Of a DNA stretch of 49,376 nucleotides, positions 37,120 through 37,868 are shown in pieces. The notes beneath the pieces are model-generated. The model was given only the letters and a program-made list of their open reading frames with translations. It was not told where the DNA came from and ran no database searches. The position numbers and the translations under genes were made by a program. The DNA comes from a virus (taxonomy: Duplodnaviria; Heunggongvirae; Uroviricota; Caudoviricetes), in the IMG/VR virus record IMGVR_UViG_2531839433_000005, positions 1 to 49,376 of that record. The stretch is one strand, 5' to 3'. Each line of letters starts with the position of its first letter. Position 1 is the stretch's first letter.

Positions 37120-37868
37120 ATCCCATGACAGAGACAGAATCAGCGATTCTGGCGCACGCCCGGCGATGTGCGCCAGCGGAGTCGTGCGGCTTCGTGGTAA
37201 GCTCGCCGGAGGGGGAAAGATATTTCCCCTGCGTGAATATCTCCGGTGAGCCGGAGGCGTATTTCCGTATGTCGCCGGAAGACTGGCTGCAGGCAGAAAT
37301 GCAGGGTGAGATTATGGCGCTGGTCCACAGCCACCCCGGTGGTCTGCCCTGGCTGAGTGAGGCCGACCGGCGGCTGCAGGTGCAGAGTGATTTGCCGTGG
37401 TGGCTGGTCTGCCGGGGGACGATTCATAAGTTCCGCTGTGTGCCGCATCTCACCGGGCGGCGCTTTGAGCACGGGGTGACGGACTGTTACACGCTGTTCC
37501 GGGATGCTTATCATCTGGCGGGGATTGAGATGCCGGATTTTCATCGCGGGGATGACTGGTGGCGTCACGGTCAGAATCTCTATCTGGATAATCTGGAGGC
37601 CACAGGGCTGTATCAGGTGCCGTTGTCATCAGCACAACCGGGCGATGTGCTGCTGTGCTGTTTTGGTTCATCGGTGCCGAATCATGCCGCCATTTACTGC
37701 GGCGACGGCGAGCTGCTGCACCATATTCCTGAACAACTGAGCAAACGAGAGAGGTACACCGACAAATGGCAGCGACGCACACACTCCCTCTGGCGTCACC
37801 GGGAATGGCACGCATCTGCCTTTACGGGGATTTGCAACGATTTGGCCGCCGCATCGACCTTCGTGTGA
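37116..37868 (+). CDS. K: Tail tip assembly protein K (JAB/MPN + NlpC/P60-like)
   Basis: HSHPGG JAMM-like motif and Cys/His NlpC-like region; ORF overlaps I by 103 nt; an internal start at 37269 would give a 199-aa product. Confidence 0.8.
   Translation: MNPMTETESAILAHARRCAPAESCGFVVSSPEGERYFPCVNISGEPEAYFRMSPEDWLQAEMQGEIMALVHSHPGGLPWLSEADRRLQVQSDLPWWLVCRGTIHKFRCVPHLTGRRFEHGVTDCYTLFRDAYHLAGIEMPDFHRGDDWWRHGQNLYLDNLEATGLYQVPLSSAQPGDVLLCCFGSSVPNHAAIYCGDGELLHHIPEQLSKRERYTDKWQRRTHSLWRHREWHASAFTGICNDLAAASTFV

Follow-up and report, generated by a model that had tools for sequence, protein, structure and literature searches.

The 103-nt overlap of tail genes K and I in a lambda-like phage: a known arrangement with a probable start of I inside K

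A long overlap between the tail genes K and I is on record in phage lambda. The RefSeq entry NC_001416 places K at 14276..14875 and I at 14773..15444, so that the two genes share 103 nt, and this is the longest non-nested same-strand overlap of that genome, followed by gam/kil with 46 nt and ninD/ninE with 34 nt. The curated records of Lambda imm21 and phage 21 agree on the overlap and have a ribosome-binding site annotated 10 nt upstream of the I start codon, an ATG. Since the same overlap as the one described below is on record in RefSeq lambda, the feature is already known and belongs to textbook lambda.

At the protein level K and I have been reported to act as protease and substrate in tail-tip assembly. 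In the parts of their paper drawn on here, Iyer, Burroughs and Aravind (2006, PMC1779556) identified in I a ubiquitin-like domain whose release they predicted, through a cut by the K JAB domain at the conserved glycine of the domain's C-terminus, and pointed out that the tail assembly proteins I and K are occasionally fused; theirs is a study of protein function, and the same parts make no mention of the gene overlap. According to a 2025 conference report (PMC12908700), the Davidson laboratory showed removal of the gpI ubiquitin-like domain by gpK. Cryo-EM of lambda (PMC10721106, PMC12617516) resolved gpI in the virion at residues 134/135-223 only, and gpK was not found in the virion.

The window analysed here is a stretch of 49,376 nt from a viral genome record (IMGVR_UViG_2531839433_000005), and the features under discussion are collected in Table 1. 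Over its K-I region the DNA matches Escherichia phage PhiR11_1 at 99% identity and phage lambda at 96%, and in both phages the region is annotated as the tail tip assembly proteins K and I, flanked by L and J. The order L, K, I, J is found here with all genes on one strand, as a module whose DNA is 96-99% identical to that of lambda-group phages, and the gene 5' of K matches Pfam Phage_tail_L. Judged by these identities the window is a lambda-like phage, and the domains, the gene order and the lambda identity all agree with the original prediction that the two genes are tail K and I.

Table 1 Features of the K/I junction in the window (columns: feature, positions, strand, basis or remark).
Gene K, tail-tip assembly protease (Prok-JAB + NlpC/P60)	37125..37868	+	ORF list, Pfam, lambda/PhiR11_1 identity
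Gene I, tail protein, 223 aa	37766..38437	+	ORF list, Pfam, lambda gpI structure chains
K/I overlap, 103 nt	37766..37868	+	ORFs; identical layout in RefSeq lambda
Putative Shine-Dalgarno site for I, GAGAGAGGT	37747..37755	+	anti-SD duplex energy; Lambda imm21/phage 21 annotation
Alternative I start, Met14 (210 aa, 64-nt overlap)	37805..37807	+	often used in NCBI-named models
GTGA, I-frame GTG (Val34) overlapping the K stop (190 aa)	37865..37868	+	sole place where stop-start coupling could occur
Region A, I residues 1-13 (MAATHTLPLASPG) over K 217-230, NlpC/P60 end	37766..37804	+	K frame constrained
Region B, I residues 14-34 (ubiquitin-like strands 1-2, MARICLYGDLQRFGRRIDLRV) over K tail 230-250	37805..37865	+	both frames apparently constrained

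Gene K gives a protein of 247 aa if it starts at ATG 37125 and of 250 aa if it starts at GTG 37116, a codon overlapping the stop of L in a GTGA; the window and most relatives favour the 247-aa form. In RefSeq lambda the start of K is placed at the internal Met52, and the resulting protein of 199 aa is without part of the JAB catalytic domain. The K protein of the window combines an N-terminal JAB/MPN domain (Prok-JAB, PF14464, residues 7-107, E = 4.7e-13) carrying a full JAMM motif (E22, H71-x-H73, S81 and D84) with a C-terminal NlpC/P60 domain (PF00877, residues 114-227, E = 1.7e-12). It ends in a C-terminal tail, residues 230-250, EWHASAFTGICNDLAAASTFV, with the motif F-x-G-I-x-N-D-[LI]. The same motif is present in Mannheimia K, where there is no I overlap, and the Mannheimia tail DFDGILNDIAVNN is related to SAFTGICNDLAAAS in the window; Actinobacillus and Neisseria K have related tails that are weaker than that of Mannheimia. 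Because Mannheimia K keeps a related tail without the overlap, the tail must be more than a side effect of the DNA having to encode I. It is missing from the aligned K proteins of T1, phi80, D14Q, mEp234 (HK97-like) and Burkholderiales. The conserved tail of K is retained in phages of Pasteurellaceae and Neisseria whose K and I have ceased to overlap.

Gene I encodes, from N- to C-terminus, a 13-residue clade-specific extension, the ubiquitin-like domain (residues 14-97; PF06805, Lambda_tail_I, E = 1e-28), a Gly-rich hydrophobic linker and the C-terminal plug domain that is seen in the virion. Against the lambda gpI chains 8iyk, 8iyl, 8k35 and 8xcg the match extends across all 223 residues (E = 5.5e-139), and the sole difference in the aligned residues is at 163-165, which read AAS here and RIQ in lambda. 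The most conserved N-terminal motif of the I family, LYGDLQRFG, occupies residues 19-27. An AlphaFold2 model of I from a shallow alignment of 22 close sequences had a mean pLDDT of 40, which is too low for strand 1, and the strands were therefore assigned from Pfam and family alignments.

The overlap was confirmed to the nucleotide. K reads 103 nt into I in a different frame, at exactly 37766-37868 as originally claimed, the RefSeq lambda annotation (K ending at 14875, I starting at 14773) has the identical arrangement, and the description of the overlap as unusually long holds in that no longer non-nested same-strand overlap exists in RefSeq lambda. Both genes are on the + strand, and I lies in the -1 (+2) frame relative to K. 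The stop of K is TGA 37866-37868, with no in-frame stop before 37866, and the nearest upstream stop in the I frame is at 37730, so that 37766 is the earliest possible start of I. The ATG at this position consists of the last A of K Lys217 and the TG of K Trp218, and the second ATG of I is built on K Glu230/Trp231; thus both candidate ATGs make use of K tryptophan codons. Whichever start is used, the two genes share no fewer than 64 nt that are translated in both frames: an overlap of that size is unavoidable because the I domain runs from residue 14 (37805) and K has no stop before 37866, and in this stretch both frames encode parts of real proteins. When K was resampled synonymously with codons drawn from neighbouring genes, the -1 frame remained open for at least 35 codons before the stop in 8.5% of the trials; a frame as long as the one observed (45 codons) or longer came up in 4.7%. 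The open frame is therefore weak evidence in itself, and the case for a real overlap is built on homology and conservation. The overlap is kept in 65 unique junctions, and from this comparison of sequences we consider it genuine and evolutionarily maintained. Two minus-strand open frames, 37450-37815 and 37668-37904, also cross the overlap.

The two halves of the overlap differ in how the frames are constrained. In region A the nucleotide diversity is highest at the third codon positions of K (0.26 vs 0.12 and 0.10), and K has a mean amino acid identity of 0.85, I one of 0.70. Residues 1-13 of I are confined to the lambda-type clade, and the DNA beneath them evolves in the pattern of the K frame, as would be expected if the I frame is here the younger and less constrained of the two. 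In region B, where the overall diversity is lowest, the second codon positions of I are the most conserved (0.077), I and K reach mean amino acid identities of 0.82 and 0.76, respectively, and both frames appear to be constrained. The mean diversity is 0.15 in region B, 0.18 in K alone and 0.29 in I alone, figures obtained from mutually related sequences with kinship ignored. The case illustrates how a long overlap can be tolerated, since a protein end under little constraint shares its DNA with a constrained stretch of the adjoining gene. A role of the overlap as a linkage block, holding K and the I ubiquitin-like domain together in mosaic phages, found no support: the correlation with K identity was 0.81 for the ubiquitin-like domain and 0.83 for the C-terminal domain, and among pairs with more than 90% identity in K, that of the ubiquitin-like domain drops to 57%.

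With the overlap established, the main question is where translation of I begins. Within K, in the codons for Arg-Glu-Arg (CGA GAG AGG), lies the putative Shine-Dalgarno site GAGAGGT (37749-37755), with its core GAGGT (37751-37755) placed 10 nt before ATG 37766. The anti-Shine-Dalgarno energy calculated for this ATG is -9.3 kcal/mol, which can be compared with -10.8 for M, -7.2 for L and -6.8 for J in the same window; for ATG 37805 the energy is -3.4 kcal/mol (-1.5 with another scoring window) and for GTG 37865 it is -1.5 kcal/mol. The GAGG is kept in all lambda-type relatives though the K residue varies between R, G, E, A and V, and the A that completes ATG 37766, a third-codon position of K, is kept across the K codons AAA, TCA and CGA. 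The spacing of 10 nt between the Shine-Dalgarno site and the ATG is longer than optimal, and since the site overlaps a conserved Arg-Glu of K, part of its conservation could come from K.

For a broader comparison, we gathered 113 unique K-I junctions out of phage records, genome contigs and viral contigs (single-protein queries), located in each the stop of K, every candidate start and the position that aligns with lambda Met14, and calculated the anti-Shine-Dalgarno energies of the starts. Fifty-six of the unique junctions are of the lambda type, a group that includes Escherichia, Shigella, Citrobacter, Salmonella Gifsy-2, Stx phages, Edwardsiella, Morganella, Xenorhabdus and relatives. All 56 have an I ATG 13 or 12 codons upstream of the Met14 position, with an overlap of 97, 103 or 106 nt, and in all 56 this ATG is preceded by a Shine-Dalgarno sequence of -5.9 to -9.3 kcal/mol (mean -7.8). 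At the Met14 position itself no good Shine-Dalgarno was found in any of the 56 (-1.5 to -4.8 kcal/mol), and the codon there is ATG in 32, TTG in 5 and a non-start codon (CTG, CGC or CCA) in 19. A second group of nine unique junctions, the Orbus type together with ES18, has the I start at the Met14 position, a Shine-Dalgarno sequence of -6.4 to -9.3 kcal/mol and an overlap of 58 nt; in the Orbus prophage L040 the sequence before the start is GGAGG, derived from the K codons Trp-Arg-His (TGG AGG CAC). An ATG at -13 is absent from all nine, and in several of them the stretch from -13 to 0 contains in-frame stops. When the lambda type is set against the Orbus type and ES18, the Shine-Dalgarno site and the start codon are seen to move together.

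From these comparisons we consider ATG 37766 to be probably the main start of I, and the locus as a whole is probably best explained as a lambda-type K/I junction in which I is started from its own site inside K and the overlap falls into two halves. Ribosomes translating K must pass the I start and read on to TGA 37866-37868, and I would be initiated independently at ATG 37766 by means of the GAGAGGT site within the K codons, giving a protein of 223 aa and the 103-nt overlap. In 37766-37804 a loosely constrained I extension would ride on the constrained peptidase end of K, and in 37805-37865 the first two ubiquitin-like strands of I would share their DNA with the K tail of about 20 residues. 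A 223-aa I predicts the gpI N-terminus (M)AATHTLPLASPGMAR. The literature searched yielded no peptide from the N-terminus of gpI.

The original prediction also suggested that the overlap may reflect translational coupling. In the sense of termination and reinitiation this finds no support, with the stop 100 nt away from the I start, a Shine-Dalgarno site of I's own and no hairpin, but a looser form of coupling can be imagined in which ribosomes on K expose or occlude the I ribosome-binding site and thereby set the K:I ratio without any reinitiation. Since both the Shine-Dalgarno site and the start of I are inside K, they are necessarily crossed by K-translating ribosomes; a set ratio or order would make sense for a protease and its substrate, and the maintenance of the overlap in the 65 junctions fits such a role. 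We nevertheless regard it as unlikely. The 161-nt region round the I start folds less stably than its shuffles (z = +2.1, with 199 of 200 shuffles folding at least as well), and because the region is less structured than the shuffles, ribosomes moving along K meet no hairpin that they would have to unfold. The Shine-Dalgarno site of I is thus neither weak, at -9.3 kcal/mol, nor masked by a stable structure, and scans of the region with Rfam gave no match and those for promoters and terminators nothing relevant. In addition, many relatives function with overlaps of 1-10 nt or with K and I 270-375 nt apart, and K and I are separate complementation groups by amber mutants, which argues against a strict dependence of one on the other. 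Decidedly unlikely, in our view, is the more specific idea that the overlap is more than a historical relic and ties output of the protease to that of its substrate, for example by occlusion of the I site, which would set the K:I ratio or order in a stepwise assembly, or, alternatively, that the K tail is what recognises the I ubiquitin-like domain; the present sequence analysis yielded no evidence for a regulatory role of the overlap itself.

A start of I at Met14, with the upstream ATG as an accident of the Lys-Trp codons of K, is a choice that many database models have made: the 210-aa form beginning at ATG 37805 is found in cluster P0012 with 5268 members, NCBI-named and bigger than cluster P0006, which has 1140 members and the 223-aa form beginning at ATG 37766. 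This methionine is where the Pfam domain starts and where almost all distant homologues have their N-terminus, those with 32-46% identity starting at its equivalent and having no 13-residue extension, and no selection in the I frame was seen on residues 1-13. All the same, we find it quite unlikely that Met14 is the start to the exclusion of ATG 37766. The Shine-Dalgarno sequence before it, at -1.5 to -3.4 kcal/mol, is unusable, and the strong GGAGG that precedes the Met14-position start in the Orbus type is missing in the lambda type. Moreover, the 19 lambda-type junctions with CTG, CGC or CCA at this position must belong to phages that initiate I upstream. Met14 could serve as an additional start in those phages that retain it, since I residues 1-13 bear no mark of selection in their own right and most family members lack them.

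Classical coupling would require that ribosomes terminate on K at TGA and reinitiate at GTG 37865, producing an I of 190 aa. The GTGA motif is indeed present, the mEp460 record and two small clusters, P0029 and P0040, take this GTG as the start, and junctions of the ATGA type are found in relatives with short overlaps. A 190-aa I would, however, be without ubiquitin-like strands 1-2, including the most conserved motif GDLQRFG; the GTG is not conserved, being replaced by ATA, GTC or ATC in relatives, and it has no Shine-Dalgarno sequence. Of the candidate starts only this GTG touches the K stop, which lies 100 nt beyond ATG 37766 and 61 nt beyond ATG 37805, and we consider reinitiation there highly improbable.

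A programmed -1 frameshift that would produce a K-I fusion as in lambda G/GT can for practical purposes be dismissed, for despite the -1 frame of I relative to K (as T to G), the existence of database proteins with both NlpC/P60 and Lambda_tail_I, and the occasional I-K fusions noted by Iyer et al. (PMC1779556, in the parts used here), there is no X XXY YYZ heptamer in 37700-37868, no homopolymer of 5 or more in the overlap and no stimulatory hairpin, pseudoknot or Rfam match, and the database fusions are singletons, each with a different junction and some with further frameshifts, which marks them as indel artefacts.

Initiation of I from its own site at ATG 37766 remains our preferred reading. 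In distant relatives K and I overlap by 4 nt (T1 and Pseudomonas phage D14Q), 8 nt (phi80) or 10 nt (Dhillonvirus PTXU06), and the junctions in Burkholderiales prophages have overlaps of 1, 4, 8 or 26 nt or a gap of 44 nt, so that the long overlap is specific to a clade. In mEp234 and the Mannheimia phage a small ORF and a terminator are found between K and I. Whether homologues end K before I begins thus has a divided answer: they do so in the Mannheimia phage, mEp234 and some Burkholderiales prophages, which counts against a general reading of the original prediction, and all close and intermediate homologues overlap, as it would have it. The most economical history, and a likely one as inferred from the distribution of junction types, is stepwise. 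The ancestral junction would have been a stop/start overlap of 1-10 nt like those of T1, phi80 and the Pseudomonas phages; K would then have been extended 58-64 nt into I in a gammaproteobacterial lineage; and finally the start and Shine-Dalgarno site of I would have moved 13 codons upstream in the lambda-type clade. A duplication of the shared segment as the origin of the non-overlapping lineages (Mannheimia, Actinobacillus, Neisseria) was also considered and given up as too weak, with p = 0.38-0.60 for ungapped identity and p = 0.02-0.15 for local alignment.

The practical value of the analysis is in annotation. For essentially the same DNA, public databases hold three I proteins of 223, 210 and 190 aa, and the comparative evidence presented here favours the 223-aa I and the 247-aa K. 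This is timely, as K is under study as the protease that removes the I ubiquitin-like domain; the K/I overlap opens no new biological question.

Compared with known systems, the locus is closest in layout to lambda, with which it shares the L-K-I-J order and an overlap of 103 nt with I in the -1 frame, as well as the ATG and Shine-Dalgarno site of I and the stop of K, and from which it differs by point changes only, for example at K residue 230, which is Glu here and Ala in lambda. It also resembles the JAB peptidase/ubiquitin-like substrate pair as set out in the parts of PMC1779556 used here, likewise having a JAMM motif in K and a ubiquitin-like domain followed by a Gly-rich linker in I. 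Lambda G/GT belongs to the same operon, consists of tail-assembly genes and has its downstream frame at -1 as in K/I, but it needs a slippery heptamer and makes a fusion, whereas K/I is without a slippery site and I has a start and a Shine-Dalgarno site of its own.

The Orbus type and ES18 share the frame relation and a homologous K tail with the window, and their K reaches 58 nt into the I ubiquitin-like domain; they differ in that I begins at the Met14 position without the 13-residue extension, several loci having upstream stops in the I frame, and in that the I start of the Orbus type follows the GGAGG from K Trp-Arg-His (sequence shown for L040). T1, phi80, D14Q, PTXU06 and the Burkholderiales prophages have the same gene order, a homologous K with JAB and NlpC/P60 domains and a ubiquitin-like I. 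In contrast to the window, their overlap is 1-26 nt and often ATGA, the layout expected for stop-start coupling, their I begins at the Met14 equivalent, and their K is without the C-terminal tail of about 20 residues.

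In the RefSeq record of lambda, the tail-tip protease gene K is annotated from an internal methionine, Met52, giving a product of 199 aa whose JAB domain is truncated at its N-terminal end and lacks the catalytic Glu22. The JAMM motif of K consists of E22, H71-x-H73, S81 and D84, and Glu22 together with the N-terminal part of the domain is regained when translation is taken to begin at ATG 37125, for a product of 247 aa, or at GTG 37116, which overlaps the stop codon of L as GTGA. The upstream start is without a Shine-Dalgarno site (-0.5 kcal/mol), so its use may require coupling to L. 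A strong site precedes Met52 (-9.5 kcal/mol), making two K products conceivable.

Coordinates of features in the K-I-J region and in related loci
Feature	Position	Remark
K start region	window 37116-37270	lambda 14276 = RefSeq K start (Met52)
I residues 162-166	window 38250-38264	TPTAAS patch
GC-rich hairpin, then T run (aaaccgcctccgggcggttttgtcgttt)	window 38446-38480	between I and J
Small ORF and terminator, Mannheimia phage 535AP2	L088 1233-1500	between K and I
Small ORF and terminator, mEp234	L093 968-1288	between K and I
I start region, Orbus-type prophage	L040, around 2505-2527	

K and the tail gene I are not always adjacent. In Mannheimia phage 535AP2 and in mEp234 a small, moron-like ORF with a rho-independent terminator lies between them, so complete separation is tolerated by the pair. 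Fusions of K (NlpC/P60) to I are also found among the database proteins (P0010, P0013, P0014, P0017, P0019, P0036, P0038, P0048, P0063, P0078 and P0098), but all are singletons with their own junctions and some carry further frameshifts; rather than natural fusions, they seem to be artefacts of assembly or of indels within the overlap. Another database protein, P0168 (2783 aa), matched I with E = 3e-37 through 23 repeated matches to I residues 10-63. The protein is the translation of a tandem repeat, each unit contributing roughly 6 bits, and was rejected as a homologue because repetition had inflated the score.

The most mosaic part of I is the Gly-rich linker (residues 98-140). Further downstream, the TPTAAS patch, which reads TPRIQT in lambda, is shared with I proteins of more distant E. 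coli prophages. The GC-rich hairpin between I and J lies well inside the late operon, yet the phage 21 record labels the corresponding site a terminator.

Lambda-group K-I DNA was also present on short, often low-coverage contigs (loci L004-L018, L030-L032, L036, L037, L039 and L048) from assemblies labelled Collinsella, Neobacillus, Pseudoxanthomonas, Shewanella, Bradyrhizobium, Streptomyces and others, all unrelated organisms. Most are 95-98% identical to the query, and L030, the Streptomyces contig, is 67% identical. This DNA is probably phage-lambda contamination.

In the Orbus-type prophages (loci L040 and L133-L139) I starts at the position of lambda Met14. Direct reading of L040 placed the GGAGG Shine-Dalgarno sequence of I within the K codons for Trp-Arg-His (TGG AGG CAC), whereas in the lambda type the identical residues are spelled TGG CGT CAC and the Shine-Dalgarno site of I lies 39 nt further upstream.
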